From positions 1 to 31,991 of the IMG/VR virus record IMGVR_UViG_2563366883_000019: a stretch of DNA of 31,991 nt; one strand, written 5' to 3'. Below, piece after piece: positions 14,694 through 21,390 of this stretch. The number at the start of each line of letters is the position of its first letter. Positions within the stretch are counted from its first letter, which is position 1. Position numbers and translations under genes: made by a program. Source of the stretch: a virus. Taxonomy: Duplodnaviria; Heunggongvirae; Uroviricota; Caudoviricetes. The notes beneath the pieces are model-generated. The model searched no databases and was not told the DNA's origin. It saw only the letters and a program-made list of their open reading frames with translations.

Positions 14694-16667
14694 TTATGCT
14701 GCTACGGCATTCACACCAACAGTAAGACTTTCAATCAGCACAGGGTAAGTTGCCGCATTTCCGGTAATATCCGTAATTGCCAGCGCGTTGGCCTCAAAGG
14801 CTGCATTCGTCCATCTGGTCAGCGTAAACGGTTTTCCTGCTGCATTATCAAGCACCGGCGTGACGTTCAGCGAGCCACCACCCGGGAAGCGGAAAGTCAG
14901 CGTGTGCCAGTCGTGATCGAACGGACCATAACTACCAAGCCGCTGTGATGTGGTGTTTGCATGATACATCACATTGATGTTTGTTTTATCAGTCTGCAGA
15001 TAGAAGGCCGCAATATAACCCTCCTCTGATTCCGCTCCCGGCCATCCACTACCGCGCCAGTAAATACCCGCAGAATATTGATTTGCAGAAGCATTGAGAG
15101 ATACATCATCGGGGATTTTAAAGCGCAGCGTGATTTCACCGCCGTTATCGAACAGCTCCTTCCCCTTACCGGCATCAATTGCGTGCGATACTTTCCAGGT
15201 CTTTTTCTGTGCAAGACCATTTTCTGGTTTTTCAAGACGAAGGGCTTTTTTACCTGAACCACTGTCACTGACCAGCGTGTTTTTGACATCTGTCAGCGTC
15301 CAGCCCTGCGAAGCCAGAGCGGCATTTTCCGCATTCACATCATAAGCCAGCACTGACTGTATCTTTGTCGGGACAACGGCTTCAGGCTGAGTATCGCCAC
15401 TCTCCTGTGCTGGTTGCGATACGCCTCCGCCTGAAGAAACCGCGGCTTTTGTCACTTTCCCGGAAACAAAATCTGCCACTCTGCCCACATGCAGAAGAAT
15501 GGCTGTTGCCAGACGGTCGGAAATAATTCCGCGACGCGCCCATGAACCAAAGTGGGTTTTACGATCGGATGTTGTCCAGCTCTTCGCATCCGTTCGTCCA
15601 CCGGAACCATAATACCCGATAGCCGGAATATCCGGGTCTTCTGACGGTTCATTGGTCCCGACTTTCTGACCATTGTCATCCATCATAAACGGCACAAAGA
15701 AGATATTTTTACCGGCTTTGGTTTTGTATGCGCCATAGACGGCATCGTATTGCGCTGAATACGTCTCCTTCCAGTAGTACGTCGTGTCACCACAAATCCA
15801 GGGCACCAGAGAAGGAGAAGCACCAGCGCACTGACCGGATACTCCCGCCAGGTCAGAACGGTATTTTTCCACCATGGCATCAAACATGGCGGGCTGACTG
15901 GCGTACGCTCCCTGTTTTAAATCAAACTCGCCCTGCATCCAGACAACACAAAGCAGTATGTTTTTGGGGTTTGCCTTCAGCGCGGCCTGAGTGCGTGTCA
16001 GCAGGTCTTTATACAACGGCTTATCAACGCCCCATCGTTCAGATTTATCCGACGCTCCTGAACTTTCACTGAACGTTCCGTCAGCACCGGCTGTAAACGC
16101 AGAGCCACCACGACAGCACGGCACTAACAAAATACCCGCATTTTCCGGCATAAAGGGCAACAGCTTTTTGGCAATATGCAATCCCTGTCCGACACACCCA
16201 TACTGCTCTGCGCTGGCTTTCGGATGAGAAAAACGGCTCAAATCCTGCACATCATGCAGGCAGTGGTCCGCCGGAATGATGTCGTTATATGCACAGGCCG
16301 CACCACCCGGTGTCACCGTACTGCGACGCGCCAGCTGTTTAATACGCGGGTCCGGACGGTCATATGTCTCCGGCAGCGGCAGGCCTTCACCATACGCCAT
16401 GCCGTTTGACTGTCCGGCCAGCGCAATGACAAAGTAATATTCTGGTTCAACAACAACAGTCCGGGTACCATCTCCCCCCGGTGAAACTACCGGAGAGGTC
16501 ATATCCCCTTCAGCGACTATAGCCTGGATAAATTCAGCACCATAACCCGCGTTTGAGATAATCGGACTACCATAGGGTTGCCAGCCTTCCTTCAGTTTTT
16601 GCGTCAGTTTTCCTGCGAGGTCTGACGGCGATGATGCCCTGACCACGTCATAGTGTTTAAATGCCAT
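14694..16667 (-). CDS. nanS-p: Prophage-encoded sialate O-acetylesterase NanS-p (SGNH/SASA esterase domain plus C-terminal lectin-like region, about 657 aa)
   Basis: ALAGQSNGMAYGEG esterase motif of the NanS/YjhS family; large size and position downstream of the Q/late leader match the nanS-p gene found downstream of stx in EHEC phages. Preferred ATG at 16667 has GGGAGG 4 nt upstream; the ORF track start at 16697 is TTG. Confidence 0.75.
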   Translation of the reverse strand: MAFKHYDVVRASSPSDLAGKLTQKLKEGWQPYGSPIISNAGYGAEFIQAIVAEGDMTSPVVSPGGDGTRTVVVEPEYYFVIALAGQSNGMAYGEGLPLPETYDRPDPRIKQLARRSTVTPGGAACAYNDIIPADHCLHDVQDLSRFSHPKASAEQYGCVGQGLHIAKKLLPFMPENAGILLVPCCRGGSAFTAGADGTFSESSGASDKSERWGVDKPLYKDLLTRTQAALKANPKNILLCVVWMQGEFDLKQGAYASQPAMFDAMVEKYRSDLAGVSGQCAGASPSLVPWICGDTTYYWKETYSAQYDAVYGAYKTKAGKNIFFVPFMMDDNGQKVGTNEPSEDPDIPAIGYYGSGGRTDAKSWTTSDRKTHFGSWARRGIISDRLATAILLHVGRVADFVSGKVTKAAVSSGGGVSQPAQESGDTQPEAVVPTKIQSVLAYDVNAENAALASQGWTLTDVKNTLVSDSGSGKKALRLEKPENGLAQKKTWKVSHAIDAGKGKELFDNGGEITLRFKIPDDVSLNASANQYSAGIYWRGSGWPGAESEEGYIAAFYLQTDKTNINVMYHANTTSQRLGSYGPFDHDWHTLTFRFPGGGSLNVTPVLDNAAGKPFTLTRWTNAAFEANALAITDITGNAATYPVLIESLTVGVNAVAA

Positions 16668-16868
16668 TATTCCTCCCGGCAGGGATAGTGTATGCAATCA
16701 AGATAAGGTGCGGGCTGACGTCAGTCATGGACAAGGGTTCAGAAACAGGAGGATGACTACAGCCCGCAATACGAAAAAGACCATACAGTTGCGCAGAGTG
16801 ATTACTGTCGGGTATTATTCGCCAGCTGAAAATTGATCACTTCACGTTTTGTTGTTTATTCCTTGCCA

Positions 16869-16897
16869 CCCGCGCTTCCCGGCGCGGGCTTTTTTTT
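16869..16897 (+). terminator. Plus-strand intrinsic terminator upstream of nanS-p
   Basis: CCCGCGC-TTCCCG-GCGCGGG followed by T8. Confidence 0.55.
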
Positions 16898-16903
16898 ATC
16901 CAA

Positions 16904-16929
16904 CAAGAAAGCCCCTCCGGAGAGGGGCT
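16904..16929 (-). terminator. Minus-strand hairpin terminator ending repeat copy A
   Basis: GCCCCTC-TCCG-GAGGGGC on the minus strand followed by TTTCTTGTT. Confidence 0.5.
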
Positions 16930-17136
16930 GGAGAGTAGCGCTATGTACCGTTCATGCATGGTGCAGGGTGCCTCCCGGTGAGTTCAGTATCAGCACCTGA
17001 ACCCGCACCAGAAAGGATAAGGGGTGTGACCAAACACCTGTCGCTGATATGCCCCTCCGCACAGGGGGATTCACCATGCCATATTTTTTTAACAAACTTC
17101 CCGCTGGCCAGACAATAATCGCCAGCCTGAATTGTG
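16904..17136 (-). repeat. Copy A of a diverged element of about 230 bp (candidate structured RNA) in the late leader
   Basis: Shares conserved 5' and 3' blocks with copy B; the central block differs; internal helices are retained by compensatory changes. Confidence 0.6.
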
Positions 17137-17387
17137 AGTAACGTGGCATTTTACGGGAAAACTGTTTTCTGCAGTAAAAAGGCCCGCCGGAGCGAGCCTG
17201 GAAGGATAGCGGTCATGTGATGCCGGTTTCCCGGTAACTCAGCATCGGTATCTGAGTCAACGTTTTCTCTACTGGGTCATTTCCGATACGTTCCGCCTTC
17301 CGGCAGACTTTCATCACGTCAGAAAATATAGCACCCTGAGTAACAGGACAGTACTCAGAATTCAGGAAACTGTGACACATCCTGCAC

Positions 17388-17412
17388 AGAAAAGCCCCTC
17401 CGGAGAGGGGCT
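17388..17412 (-). terminator. Minus-strand hairpin terminator ending repeat copy B
   Basis: Identical GCCCCTC/GAGGGGC hairpin followed by TTTTCTG on the minus strand. Confidence 0.5.
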
Positions 17413-17606
17413 GAAGTATAGCCTAATTTCTGTCTGTCGCATGGTGCCAGGTGCCTCCCGGTAAATTCAGCCTGGCTACTGAATTTGCATGTTCGCTGGA
17501 TCATACACTTTGCCAGATGCCCCGCCGCTGAGGGGGATTCACCACGCGATGCAATTTTTAACAAATTCTCCGGCAGCCAGACAATCATCAAGCTGTGGAA
17601 TTGTGA
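17388..17606 (-). repeat. Copy B of the same element
   Basis: Same conserved blocks as copy A; the overlapping ORFs in the two copies are not conserved at protein level. Confidence 0.6.
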
Positions 17607-17926
17607 GGTATTTAAAAATTTCGCAGCCTCTTGCCACCCGCTTTTCACAAAAATCGTATGTAGAAGGCCGCAGCGTAACTATCACTGATGAATTCAGGAC
17701 CCCCAGAGGCTACGGCTCAGTTTGGATTGTGGCGGCCGGAATCGAACCAGCTCCCAGCGGTGCGCTGCCGATTACAATACGCGCGGCGATCCGCTACATG
17801 ACTAGTATTTTCACAGTCGCCTGTCTGCTAGCTCGCCATTGAGCTTCACCACAACGATAAGAGCACTGCGCACACCTTTCACCAATTCCACGAGGTCTGC
17901 GGGTTCAATGCTCTTACCTGTTGTGC

Positions 17927-17958
17927 AAACAAAAAGCCCCGACATTTCTGCCGAGGCC
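17927..17958 (-). terminator. Candidate tR'-like terminator downstream of the putative late promoter
   Basis: Minus-strand hairpin GCCTCGGCA-GAAA-TGTCGGGGC (two G:U pairs) followed by TTTTTGTTTG. Confidence 0.45.
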
Positions 17959-18064
17959 TTTACCTAATCTAGCCAGTATGCCGATCCTAAATATTATCGA
18001 CGACCGAGGTAAATCAGGATTTCTCTTTCGCTTCTCAGTGCGCTTTTGCTCCGAGCATACACAA

Positions 18065-18093
18065 AACATACTACTTTCATTTCTCGAAAGCAA
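18065..18093 (-). promoter_or_regulatory. Candidate late promoter (pR'-like) just downstream of the Q-locus genes
   Basis: Minus-strand TTGCTT, 17-nt spacer, TATGTT, located about 25 nt after the stop of the 204-aa ORF and about 100 nt upstream of a terminator hairpin. Confidence 0.3.
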
Positions 18094-18117
18094 CGCATTT
18101 ACAAAAAATATTTTGCA

Positions 18118-18732
18118 TCATCCAGCAATCACTAGAAGTTCTTTCTCCAATTCTCGCTTCATTGCATAAAACATTTCTGAATCAAGGACCCTCTCGCACC
18201 ACACGACCCGCCTCCGGCAATACTGAATATCAACTCCTGTTATCTGAGAAATCATCCTGGCGATATCTTGCGTGCTGTCGCGATTGCAATATCGCCTAAT
18301 AGCTACATCACGGACAGGGCTTTCACGATGAAAGGTCTCAACCATCACACGTTCAACGAAAGCAGCATCATCGGATTCTTTGGCGAGAGCAATGATATTA
18401 CCTGCCGATGACTGAGGGATGACCAGTTCTCGGGCTTTCTGATGGAGTTCATCTCCACGTAGTCCGTCTTCTTCATACAGACGCATGACAACAGACTCAA
18501 TCTGCTTAGCTTTGTCATCGCTCCACTGACTGCGAATCATCAGTCGCCCAATAACGTTAATTGCACCACAAGGAGAATCATCACCAGCGTTAACATTTCC
18601 CCATACCTGTAGCATGTAGTGAACCCATGCTTTCTGACGAGAGTTAATGATTTTCTTCGGATGCCTCCATATGCGGCGGAAATGAGCATCATTAATAAAG
18701 TTAACCATGCCGAATACTGGGGTTAGCCGCAT
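18118..18732 (-). CDS. Putative late antiterminator Q-like protein (about 204 aa)
   Basis: Position after ninH and immediately upstream of a promoter-like element plus terminator; ATG overlaps the stop of the upstream 80-aa ORF (TGATG). Assignment is positional; no motif recognised confidently. Confidence 0.4.
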   Translation of the reverse strand: MRLTPVFGMVNFINDAHFRRIWRHPKKIINSRQKAWVHYMLQVWGNVNAGDDSPCGAINVIGRLMIRSQWSDDKAKQIESVVMRLYEEDGLRGDELHQKARELVIPQSSAGNIIALAKESDDAAFVERVMVETFHRESPVRDVAIRRYCNRDSTQDIARMISQITGVDIQYCRRRVVWCERVLDSEMFYAMKRELEKELLVIAG

Positions 18733-18974
18733 CACAGCCCCCATCCTTTACAATGACACCACACTTCAAACATTCGTTTCACAACTTCACGGCAGTAGAA
18801 ACCGTCAGCATCACGTGTCAGGTCATAGCGATCTCCGTGCTTCAGTCTCATATAGCATTCGAATAATCTGTTCATATACTCTTCGCCATGAACTCCGCTA
18901 TTACGCTGCTCATGCGCTTTTCCAGACGACCTGAATAAAGCCATGCGTTCAGGCACCTGCTGAATATCACGCAT
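18732..18974 (-). CDS. Hypothetical protein at the Q locus (80 aa from internal ATG), Cys/His-containing
   Basis: Begins MRDIQQVPER and starts 8 nt before the ninH stop; the ORF track frame extends to 19079, overlapping ninH. Translationally coupled to the 204-aa ORF. Confidence 0.4.
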   Translation of the reverse strand: MRDIQQVPERMALFRSSGKAHEQRNSGVHGEEYMNRLFECYMRLKHGDRYDLTRDADGFYCREVVKRMFEVWCHCKGWGL

Positions 18975-21158: not shown

Positions 21159-21390
21159 GCTTTGTGTCCTACTTGATATTTTGATTTACCCCTTTTGAGA
21201 GGGTGACCGGGCGCTCAAAACCGCAAGTAGTCGGCGGGCATATTCCCATTGCTGGTATTGTATTAGCCGCACGCCCGGTCATAAACCAAGAAGACTGGAC
21301 ACAAAAAAACCGCATGTCTGTCGGGCGCGGTAACCGCTACTTGCTAAGGTGTTTTGAGCACCTGACGCAGAGTATCCGACAGAATGTGTG

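Follow-up and report, generated by a model that had tools for sequence, protein, structure and literature searches.

STnc100 is a known, expressed and Hfq-associated family of prophage sRNAs, whose members include EcOnc27 of E. coli O157 Sakai and sRNA103 of EDL933. EcOnc27 is bound by Hfq, is convergent with AsxR and lies 3' of stx2B (PMC4104026). In the same study, Tree et al. (2014) described sRNA genes at the 'moron' site downstream of PR', stx-negative prophages included (PMC4104026). Eleven STnc100 copies are transcribed in EDL933, one of which was Northern-positive (PMC5331693). PasD1 and PasD2 of EPEC, which are reported to be structural homologues of STnc100 (bioRxiv 10.64898/2026.05.13.724894), were validated by Northern blotting and are stabilised by Hfq; in Hfq-dependent chimeras, a motif in their 3' linker connects them to many mRNAs (PMC8550237). 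Evidence for discrete, Hfq-associated RNAs comes from these relatives, i.e. from RNA-seq and Northern blots in EDL933 (PMC5331693), RIL-seq and Northern blots in EPEC (PMC8550237) and Hfq-CRAC in Sakai (PMC4104026), and members of the family are abundant in uninduced lysogens (PMC5331693, PMC8550237). In the literature on the family we found no established function for STnc100 proper.

We compared these systems with a locus in a window of 31,991 nucleotides (the whole stretch of phage DNA that was analysed), which is 99.7% identical to Escherichia phage PhiR5_2. On the late (minus) strand, the order is a Q-like gene, the pR'/tR' region, a tRNA-like RNA and three STnc100 units (B, C and A). Past unit A come a single short sRNA gene in convergent orientation (plus strand) and nanS-p. 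The first-pass annotation of this interval had described the two copies A and B, but had overlooked the third copy, the plus-strand sRNA, tR' and the tRNA-like RNA. The features are as follows:

14694..16667, minus strand: nanS-p type sialate O-acetylesterase gene, first protein gene downstream (Pfam DUF1737, SASA, DUF6645)
16789..16897, plus strand: candidate convergent short sRNA gene in the AsxR/AgvB position (terminator prediction and match to an EPEC candidate); -35 TTGCGC 16789-16794, -10 TATTAT 16813-16818, terminator 16869-16888 plus T8
16904..17138, minus strand: STnc100 unit A (Rfam RF02076, 129.9 bits); by motif position and homology, CTCACAATTC block 17129-17138, -35 TTGTCT 17110-17115 and -10 TAAAAA 17086-17091; predicted RNA from about 17079 to 16904, 176 nt; terminator hairpin 16910-16929
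17173-17348, minus strand: STnc100-like unit C, diverged paralogue between A and B (Rfam RF02076, 30.0 bits); extended -10 TGcTATATT 17325-17333; predicted RNA from about 17319 to 17175, 145 nt; terminator hairpin 17180-17199
17386..17607, minus strand: STnc100 unit B (Rfam RF02076, 138.7 bits; the fold gives P1-P4); by motif position and homology, CTCACAATTC block 17598-17607, -35 TTGTCT 17579-17584 and -10 TAAAAA 17555-17560; predicted RNA from about 17547 to 17386, 162 nt; terminator hairpin 17393-17412
17727..17853, minus strand: tRNA-like structured RNA (Rfam tRNA, 27.5 bits; covariation)
17931..17956, minus strand: tR'-type intrinsic terminator, CCUCGGCA-GAAA-UGUCGGGG followed by CUUUUUG (sequence reading; aligns with the annotated Tr' of HK75)
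17957..18117, minus strand: putative pR' late promoter region, placed here because it separates the Q stop codon from the tR'-type hairpin
18118..18744, minus strand: Q-like late antiterminator gene, 208 aa (PHROG 753 'anti-termination protein Q-like', E 3.5e-68)

The Q-like gene had no match in Pfam; in PhiR5_2 it lies downstream of ninH and rusA. In HK75, pR' and Tr' are annotated at the place equivalent to the putative promoter region and hairpin of the window. At the other end of the interval, a strong Shine-Dalgarno sequence precedes the nanS-p ATG at 16667. Copies A and B lie in the late region of a prophage, between Q and the esterase. In Stx2a phages the gene order is tRNAs, stx2A, stx2B, STnc100 and nanS-p, which bears out the earlier proposal that the interval corresponds to the site of the tRNA genes and stxAB in 933W-type phages. 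The same proposal held that the copies stand there instead of toxin genes. This part was mistaken, because the same sRNA gene sits directly 3' of stx2B in Stx2 phages, and unit A occupies the place of this STnc100/EcOnc27 gene of Stx2a phages. The locus studied here merely lacks stx and has three copies of the sRNA module. Other arrays are flanked by Ile/Arg tRNA genes on one side and a SASA esterase on the other.

The GenBank and RefSeq records leave the interval empty or fill it with 'hypothetical protein'. None of its ORFs matched Pfam, in line with the initial impression that it holds no credible ORF. The sole interval ORF with a PHROG match (phrog_23557) is a 55-aa ORF at 17213-17380, over copy C. 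We rejected this ORF as the cause of the conservation of copy C, because its ATG is replaced by ATA in the other allele and the substitutions number 8/10/9 across the three codon positions. A BLAST search with the E2348/69 region found no PasA/PasC-type sRNA between nanS-p and the holin.

A covariance-model search (Rfam/Infernal) identified copies A and B, which had been presented as an unknown element, as Rfam STnc100 (EcOnc27/sRNA103) and as relatives of PasD. Both matched RF02076 on the minus strand over model positions 1-206, copy B with 138.7 bits and copy A with 129.9 bits, far above the curated gathering score of 47 bits. The E values of these matches were about 1e-28 to 1e-31, so that the likeness is far beyond chance. 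Both copies were found at the positions originally given, with all common blocks present in each (GCCCCTCCGGAGAGGGGC hairpin, CATGGTGC.AGGTGCCTCCCGGT, GGGGGATTCACCA, CCAGACAAT.ATC and AATTGTGAG), and they are 65% identical to each other. Each ends in the same terminator on the minus strand, an 8-bp hairpin of G+C with a T-run after it. The searches matched no IS or REP family. As members of this family of small regulatory RNAs of prophages, copies A and B are unexceptional. The original observation is confirmed but not new, because the STnc100/EcOnc27 family had been catalogued before, also beside Shiga toxin genes.

The RNA structure was studied in 46 homologues less than 62% identical, using a MAFFT alignment of the core only that was made without structure (A3), because a MAFFT alignment of 144 full-length elements (A2, 528 columns) had too many gaps for a structural analysis. 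In these 46 homologues, 95.8% of the pair cells were paired, compared to 41-46% with the partners slid. Furthermore, 147 cells had double changes, compared to 19-43 in the slid controls, and none of 500 shuffles reached the observed value. Two-sided changes occurred at 11 of the 26 pairs. RNAalifold recovered P1, P2, the closing helix of the variable centre, P3 and P4 from the same set, and an anchored test showed that pairs of the P1 extension covary as well (UA 187 / CG 26 / AU 6; GC 131 / AU 74). The homologues were fetched by a pattern that fixes GGTGAATCCCC and CCGGGAGGCACC, so that the invariance of P2 and P4 in the homologue set is partly by construction. The copies have the consensus structure of STnc100, i.e. 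an outer helix around several hairpins and then a terminator hairpin. The helices are kept by two-sided changes across diverse homologues, which agrees with the first reading of the copies as a selected RNA structure rather than a decaying duplicate.

Two differences between A and B had originally been put forward as compensatory, and one of them stood. The change from GAGTTCAG/CTGAACCC in A to AAATTCAG/CTGAATTT in B comprises two double changes from G-C to A-U and one change from G.U to A-U, and this helix covaries at all 7 of its 7 pairs across the family. CCCCT versus CCCCG, in contrast, is a one-sided change, with U opposite A, U or C family-wide.

Folding of both strands gave a mixed result. 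Copies B and C reproduced the P1-P4 structure, while the single-sequence fold of copy A reproduced P1, P2, P3 and the terminator but not P4. The folding z-scores were modest (-1.35, -2.55 and -2.94) and did not discriminate between the strands; the opposite strand of copy A folded better (-3.36), and hence thermodynamics alone cannot fix the strand. The strand was assigned from covariation, terminator orientation and the strand of the Rfam match. The RF02076 matches and terminator hairpins of A and B on the minus strand agree with the early assignment of the copies to the late strand, and of their ends to intrinsic terminators.

Copy C scored 30.0 bits (E 2.9e-4 in a 1.6-kb scan), which is under the RF02076 gathering score of 47. 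It is a diverged relative, and not an STnc100 member by the Rfam threshold. It retains P1 (GAUG/CAUC), the P2 hairpin, P3 and a CCGG-GAAA-CCGG P4, and was found in 673 E. coli genomes. Between arrays, copy C is 84% identical, compared to 62-68% for the A and B copies. Hence, it is the best-conserved member of the array, though the most diverged of the copies.

Promoter-like sequences precede the core throughout the family. In 68% of 134 non-redundant members, a hexamer resembling a -10 element has its first base 13-17 nt ahead of GGUG, compared to a background of 1-5% per position, and there is a -35 peak at -37 to -40. This signal was seen only with hexamers scored by position. Per-column information without gaps revealed next to nothing in the region upstream of the core, and a simple promoter scan did not report the weak -10 hexamers of A and B (TAAAAA). 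The promoters and RNA ends of A, B and C were placed by homology and motif position only. By its RIL-seq coordinates (741157-741328), PasD2 has its 5' end at the first base of P1 and its 3' end within the U-tract, and TTGACT-18-TAAAAA lies upstream. The promoter-like matches on the plus strand (TTAACA-16-GACAAT) are reverse complements of the minus-strand promoter blocks. A conserved TGTGA box is centred approximately 61.5 nt (A) to 62.5 nt (B) upstream of the inferred starts; by its spacing alone, one might guess at a resemblance to a class I CRP half-site.

The STnc100 family occurs in 57% of the complete E. coli genomes and the three-copy array in 12%. Two to three tandem STnc100-type copies also occur in other genera, and the family extends to Pantoea, Erwinia and Rahnella.

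We interpret the interval, with a probability of about 0.8, as the 'moron'/stx slot of an stx-negative lambdoid phage, occupied by three autonomous, trans-acting sRNA genes of the STnc100 family. Family membership, the covariation-supported structure, the promoter-like hexamers at fixed distance, synteny and distribution were established in our analysis; we infer that A, B and C are most likely expressed and Hfq-dependent, with targets of their own. Each unit would have a sigma-70-type promoter and give an RNA of about 145-176 nt that starts at helix P1. In this RNA, helices P1, P3 and P4, the P2 hairpin and a hypervariable central hairpin, which a covarying helix closes, form a multi-helix junction. 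A single-stranded, pyrimidine-rich 3' linker comes next, and the RNA ends in a U-tailed Rho-independent terminator. The homology with PasD1/2 and EcOnc27 makes it most likely that the RNAs work in trans: together with Hfq, they would pair with mRNAs of the host and the prophage, using the 3' linker, the variable hairpin or both, and the three paralogues would then have different sets of targets. During lytic growth, Q-modified polymerase would read through the terminators of the units.

In seed-pairing sRNAs, it is normally the seed that is most conserved. A junction core as conserved as this one is not typical of such an sRNA, which speaks against the trans-acting view. We tentatively consider, as a rather unlikely extension, that the multi-helix junction is a functional module, serving a phage or host factor or acting in cis on the late transcript, while the central hairpin and 3' linker are exchangeable specificity cassettes. 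If so, the fixed B-C-A array would be a diversified battery rather than a set of redundant copies.

The first-pass annotation had suggested late-leader RNAs made from the late promoter. Transcription from pR' would then stop at each hairpin and produce short leader RNAs, in a terminator/attenuator cascade before nanS-p and the lysis genes that is overridden by Q. We regard this as improbable, although pR' and the first late gene are indeed separated by three intrinsic terminators on the late strand. The leader reading also fits the placement of the family: where neighbours are recognisable, Q lies upstream and holin, lysozyme and nanS lie downstream, on the strand of the sRNA, in 183 of 183 viral and 43 of 44 genomic placements. 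This strict co-orientation with the late operon is also compatible with a cis role. However, a tR'-type terminator is already present upstream of the array, and across genera the distance between the promoter-like hexamers and the core is constant. The mapped 5' end of PasD2 coincides with the first base of the outer helix P1, and family members are abundant without prophage induction. Moreover, a terminator cascade needs no covarying five-helix junction ahead of each hairpin. A, B and C are probably autonomous sRNA genes rather than late-leader RNAs.

It is somewhat more doubtful still that the conserved junction core is what functions, by binding a phage or host protein or by mimicking another RNA, with seed pairing secondary or absent. 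The core blocks are written in upper case (highly conserved) in Rfam's own RF02076 consensus. Positions outside the search pattern, CU..GCGG.GGGG and CGGCACC, are near-invariant as well (CGGCACC in 196 of 228), while the central hairpin and 3' linker are hypervariable across homologues, and the family's reach to Pantoea, Erwinia and Rahnella points the same way. Yet the Hfq-dependent mRNA chimeras of PasD1/2 use the 3'-linker motif, and no partner of the core is known. PasD and copy C alter the sequences of P2 and P4 but keep the hairpins, which implies that the exact core sequence is not indispensable. Finally, it is hardly credible that the copies are repeated DNA without a function, left by a duplication in decay or by a piece of a REP or IS element. 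This would suit tandem copies that are only 65% identical in an interval annotated with nothing or 'hypothetical protein', but it is refuted by two-sided changes that keep the helices across genera. The conservation of the most diverged copy, C, between arrays and the Rfam match to an sRNA family, with no IS or REP family matched, also speak against it.

The terminator of the candidate plus-strand sRNA (16869-16888) faces the terminator of copy A (16910-16929), and its body matches the EPEC RIL-seq sRNA candidate E2348C_1409.E2348C_1408.IGR. The element at 16789-16897 had no Rfam match at E up to 10, RF02702 and RF02703 (AsxR/AgvB) included, models in which the conserved part is the 3' end of about 42 nt. 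Like AsxR and AgvB, it is a short gene convergent with an STnc100-type gene at the moron site downstream of PR'. Another array (L234) carries AsxR (63 bits) at the equivalent position, and shares both this position and the TTGCGC -35 with the plus-strand element. In contrast to AsxR/AgvB, its body and terminator stem differ, and its counterpart is the EPEC candidate.

The tRNA-like RNA has acceptor, D, variable-arm and T helices and a canonical UUCGAUU T-loop. The 5-bp stem with a 7-nt anticodon loop is absent; in its place, a structured insertion of about 48 nt lies between the strands of a GCAG/CUGC stem. Its 27.5 bits are under the cut-off of 29 of the Rfam tRNA model, and ARAGORN reported no tRNA in the whole window, nor with the intron option on 17600-18000. 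The cloverleaf is supported by 25 distinct homologues, with 97.9% of the cells paired, compared to 26-50% when slid, and with two-sided changes at 16 pairs. These changes occurred in the acceptor and T stems, in both parts of the extended anticodon-side stem and at one pair of the variable-arm helix, while the D stem varied on one side only. The arms of the cloverleaf are maintained by selection. The RNA lies just after tR' in the phage of the window, in many P22-like Salmonella phages and in HK75; we found nothing relevant on it in the literature. A derivation from the Ile/Arg/Arg tRNAs of 933W-type phages was rejected, as there is no sequence similarity. Its position just after tR' resembles that of the late-leader tRNAs of 933W-type phages (Ile/Arg/Arg) and phage L (Asn/Leu). 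It differs from these lambdoid and P22-like tRNAs in the insertion of about 48 nt for the anticodon loop, the score under the cut-off and the absence of an ARAGORN call.

How sRNA genes are arranged at the stx/moron site has been in print since 2014. The finding is already known, and an Infernal/Rfam pass labels A and B at once. Its practical value lies in annotation, as GenBank and RefSeq leave the interval empty or with 'hypothetical proteins'. Three points may be useful to researchers of prophage sRNAs: STnc100-type genes often form a fixed three-gene tandem array, the middle gene (C) escapes the Rfam threshold yet is the most conserved, and an unannotated, covarying tRNA-like RNA follows tR'.

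Copies A and B resemble STnc100/EcOnc27/sRNA103 in matching the model end to end. With the STnc100 copy 3' of stx2B in a Stx2a phage they share the helices, the AGCCCCUCUCCGGAGGGGCU terminator, the upstream promoter blocks and the position before nanS-p. Unlike in Stx2 phages, there is no stx here and there are three tandem genes (B, C and A), which differ in their central hairpins and 3' linkers, and of which C is under the gathering score. PasD1 and PasD2 of EPEC E2348/69 (Pearl Mizrahi 2021) have the same architecture, with P1 at the 5' end, a junction, a 3' linker and a terminator. PasD2 also has Q upstream and a sialate esterase directly downstream, and PasD, like copy C, falls under the RF02076 cut-off (38-41 bits). 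However, A, B and C have only 39-42% global identity to PasD, with BLAST matching core blocks only, and the UGUGAG seed of PasD (TGTGAG) is absent from all three; on this comparison we rejected the identification of copy C as PasD. Moreover, multiple Pas copies of one genome are reported to lie far apart and not in tandem (Zhu, Shabalina and Storz 2026 preprint), whereas the copies in the window are arranged in tandem.

The two elements that the first-pass annotation had noticed between the Q-like gene and nanS-p belong to the STnc100 family of small RNAs. A scan of the window at Rfam gathering thresholds matched both to RF02076 (STnc100) at full length on the minus strand, copy B with 138.7 bits and copy A with 129.9 bits (gathering cut-off 47 bits). 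Both copies were confirmed at their reported places with all of the listed blocks, and on the minus strand they end alike, in the terminator hairpin AGCCCCUC-UCCG-GAGGGGCU and a U-run. A permissive Rfam scan of the interval gave two further matches, a third copy (C) and a tRNA-like RNA, both below the cut-off. The interval and its neighbours are as follows.

16700-18117: the interval under study, between the Q-like gene and nanS-p
18118-18744, minus strand: Q-like antiterminator gene (PHROG 753 'anti-termination protein Q-like', E 3.5e-68)
17931-17956: tR'-type terminator upstream of the array, at the position of the annotated Tr' of HK75
17727-17853, minus strand: tRNA-like RNA just downstream of tR' (Rfam tRNA 27.5 bits, cut-off 29)
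17384-17577, minus strand: RF02076 match of copy B
17173-17348, minus strand: copy C, diverged and STnc100-like, between A and B (RF02076 30 bits, below cut-off)
16899-17108, minus strand: RF02076 match of copy A
16789-16897, plus strand: candidate short convergent sRNA gene (TTGCGC-18-TATTAT promoter-like site, strong terminator)
14694-16667, minus strand: nanS-p type sialate esterase gene (Pfam DUF1737, SASA, DUF6645)

The protein at the Q position matched no Pfam family, antiterminator-Q families included, and may represent a Q type outside Pfam's coverage. A P21-type holin and a lysozyme follow the esterase gene. The whole interval recurs at 99.7% identity in Escherichia phage PhiR5_2 and in prophages of 17 of the 5426 complete E. 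coli genomes; in these records it is blank or labelled 'hypothetical protein'. Elsewhere in the window, Rfam sRNA-Xcc1 (RF02221) gave a full-length match of 79.6 bits (cut-off 53) at 21197-21280 on the minus strand, immediately upstream of a 222-aa ORF; the note on this ORF in PhiR5_2 reads antirepressor protein.

Compensatory differences between A and B had been read as the signature of a selected RNA structure. Homologues were collected by the pattern GGTGAATCCCC-N60-90-CCGGGAGGCACC, which hit over 120 IMG/VR contigs as well as 109 stretches from species-representative genomes throughout the Enterobacterales, in genera including Kosakonia, Klebsiella, Pantoea, Erwinia, Rahnella, Salmonella and Citrobacter. 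From these, 46 sequences that were mutually less than 62% identical were aligned with MAFFT without structural input. RNAalifold folded them into a five-helix junction with P1 as the outer helix, P2 as a hairpin, a short helix that closes the hypervariable centre, and helices P3 and P4. Two-sided changes occurred in 11 of the 26 pairs, and 95.8% of the pair cells were paired, compared to 41-46% when the 3' partners were slid by 1-3 columns. Double-change cells numbered 147, against 19-43 in the slid controls, and none of 500 shuffles reached the observed values. An alignment-free check anchored on invariant blocks showed that the extension of P1 covaries as well: the pair beside the conserved GGUG/CACC blocks was UA in 187 cases, CG in 26 and AU in 6, while the next pair was GC in 131 and AU in 74. 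Part of the invariance of P2 and P4 among these homologues comes from the search itself, whose pattern prescribes some of their bases. Both hairpins are nevertheless real, since they persist with other sequences in the related EPEC sRNA PasD (CCUC-CUUG-GAGG) and in copy C (CUGCC-GGAA-GGCGG and CCGG-GAAA-CCGG). Hence, with covariation in 46 diverse homologues exceeding the slid and shuffled controls, selection on RNA structure was correctly recognised. Of the two examples given by the first-pass annotation, one, GGGUUCAG/CUGAACUC in A versus AAAUUCAG/CUGAAUUU in B, corresponds to P3, where 7 of 7 pairs covary; the other, CCCCT versus CCCCG, is one-sided and falls at a position without a supported pair.

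The copies had also been interpreted as late-leader RNAs, but they are probably autonomous genes, as indicated by hexamers at fixed distance, the start of PasD2 at P1 and a terminator ahead of the array. By its RIL-seq coordinates (NC_011601 741157-741328), PasD2 begins with the G of GCAUGGUG, which is the first base of P1, and stops within the U-tract of the terminator; immediately upstream of this start is TTGACT-18 nt-TAAAAA. Among 134 non-redundant members, 68% had a -10-like hexamer starting 13-17 nt before GGUG (background 1-5% per position), with a weaker -35 peak at -37 to -40. The promoter-like hexamers of A, B and C are in line with this family-wide pattern, and motif position predicts their starts.

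Copy A: TTGTCT 17110-17115, 18 nt, TAAAAA 17086-17091; putative start near 17079
Copy B: TTGTCT 17579-17584, 18 nt, TAAAAA 17555-17560; putative start near 17547
Copy C: extended -10 TGcTATATT 17325-17333; putative start near 17319
Conserved upstream box AATTGTGAG (TCACA on the sRNA strand): 17129-17138 (A) and 17598-17607 (B)

Because the three copies fit the family pattern, likely roles can be assigned to the flanking blocks. The CCAGACAAT block likely holds the -35 hexamer. TCACA stands at a constant offset upstream in 34 of 59 E. coli-type STnc100 promoters, and the centre of the AATTGTGAG box lies about 61.5 (A) to 62.5 nt (B) before the putative starts; from spacing alone, our guess would be a resemblance to a class I CRP half-site. 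Furthermore, the tR'-type terminator precedes the array, so unmodified pR' transcripts should stop short of it.

Folding of the three predicted RNAs recovered the family helices, apart from P4 in A, and left a pyrimidine-rich 3' linker before the terminator unpaired (CUCUCC in A, CUAUACUUC in B, AUCCUUCC in C). Since the seed of PasD lies in the same region, this linker may mediate Hfq-dependent base-pairing, possibly to Shine-Dalgarno-like purine runs. None of the copies is PasD itself: global identity was 39-42%, and the UGUGAG seed of PasD was absent from A, B and C.

Copy C is missed by Rfam-based annotation because its score falls under the cut-off. The order A, C, B was repeated in three other E. 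coli arrays, where C again scored about 30 bits. Compared with arrays whose A and B are only 62-68% identical to those of the window, C was 84% identical, so that by sequence no member of the array is better conserved; a double change from U-A to C-G is among the differences in its P2 hairpin. With all of the helices present, a terminator of its own and the best match to a promoter, C is no decayed remnant. Copy C occurred, in essentially two alleles, in 673 complete E. coli genomes, equal to the number with 80% or more of the three-copy array; E. albertii and five phage records also have it. The conservation of C is not accounted for by an overlapping 55-aa ORF (phrog_23557): ATA replaces the ATG in the other allele, whose substitutions are spread 8/10/9 over the codon positions.

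The terminator of the plus-strand candidate, CCCGCGCUUCCCGGCGCGGG plus U8, faces that of copy A. Sequence makes the element the counterpart of E2348C_1409.E2348C_1408.IGR, an sRNA candidate from EPEC RIL-seq that its body matches, and it lies at the position of the anti-sRNAs AsxR and AgvB. In the permissive interval scan it matched neither the AsxR nor the AgvB Rfam model, whereas AsxR scored 63 bits at the corresponding position in another array (L234).

In 25 distinct homologues, the tRNA-like RNA forms a cloverleaf whose acceptor stem has 7(+2) bp; a D arm and a canonical T arm are present, the variable arm is a class-II-like hairpin, and about 48 nt of inserted structured sequence stand in for the anticodon loop. 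In this set 97.9% of the cells were paired, compared to 26-50% when slid, and 16 pairs had two-sided changes. ARAGORN called no tRNA gene in the window, this element included. The RNA was present in 175 E. coli genomes and in 92 phage records, most of which are P22-like Salmonella phages (83 are Salmonella phages, and HK75 and phages of Pantoea are also among the 92); these records carry no RNA annotation for it, and a literature search on it found nothing. It has no sequence relation to the Ile and Arg tRNAs.

STnc100 is a multi-copy prophage sRNA family discovered in Salmonella (PMC9029176). EDL933 transcribes eleven copies, one of them Northern-positive (PMC5331693). Stx2 phages have one copy 75 nt 3' of stx2B (PMC12370729), which overlaps EcOnc27, an Hfq-bound sRNA of Sakai known as sRNA103 in EDL933 (PMC12711010). 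Tree et al. (2014) described 'moron' insertions tolerated downstream of the Q-antiterminated PR' with convergent sRNA genes there, namely EcOnc02 (AsxR) and EcOnc27 3' of stx2B in Sp5, and the same organisation in seven further lambdoid prophages (PMC4104026). The first-pass annotation had the location right in calling this an stx-equivalent slot, but the sRNA gene is no replacement for stx, as the Stx2a phage has both. Its late-strand order is three tRNAs, stx2A, stx2B, STnc100 and nanS-p, with the STnc100 promoter blocks starting a few tens of bases past the stx2B stop codon; stx-negative arrays read tRNA(Ile, Arg, Arg), B, C, A, esterase. Copy A sits in the place of EcOnc27.

Of the 5426 complete E. 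coli genomes, 3081 contained STnc100-type sequence, with a maximum of 13 places in one genome, and 673 contained the three-copy array of about 700 bp. Where neighbouring genes of the window had recognisable homologues in the fetched loci, Q lay upstream and holin, lysozyme and nanS downstream, all on the sRNA strand, with one exception in 227 placements. Element, family and location are all covered by the STnc100, EcOnc27 and PasD literature; A and B are textbook members of a curated family, in an arrangement that has been published. What remains of note is that the three-gene array is fixed, that its middle member is the best conserved although it scores below threshold, and that the tRNA-like RNA is unannotated.

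Structural homology of EPEC PasD1 and PasD2 to STnc100, and their position beside Q and a sialate esterase, are reported in a 2026 preprint of the Storz laboratory (bioRxiv 10.64898/2026.05.13.724894); both sRNAs are Northern-validated and Hfq-stabilised, with many mRNA partners by RIL-seq (PMC8550237). The multiple copies of Pas sRNAs are reported to lie far apart and not in tandem (bioRxiv 10.64898/2026.05.13.724894). In contrast, Superficieibacter electus, Pantoea sp. plasmid pAPP145_2 and Erwinia sp. carry 2-3 STnc100-type copies in tandem within 500-720 bp, and since these genera are distant, tandem arrays recur across the family.
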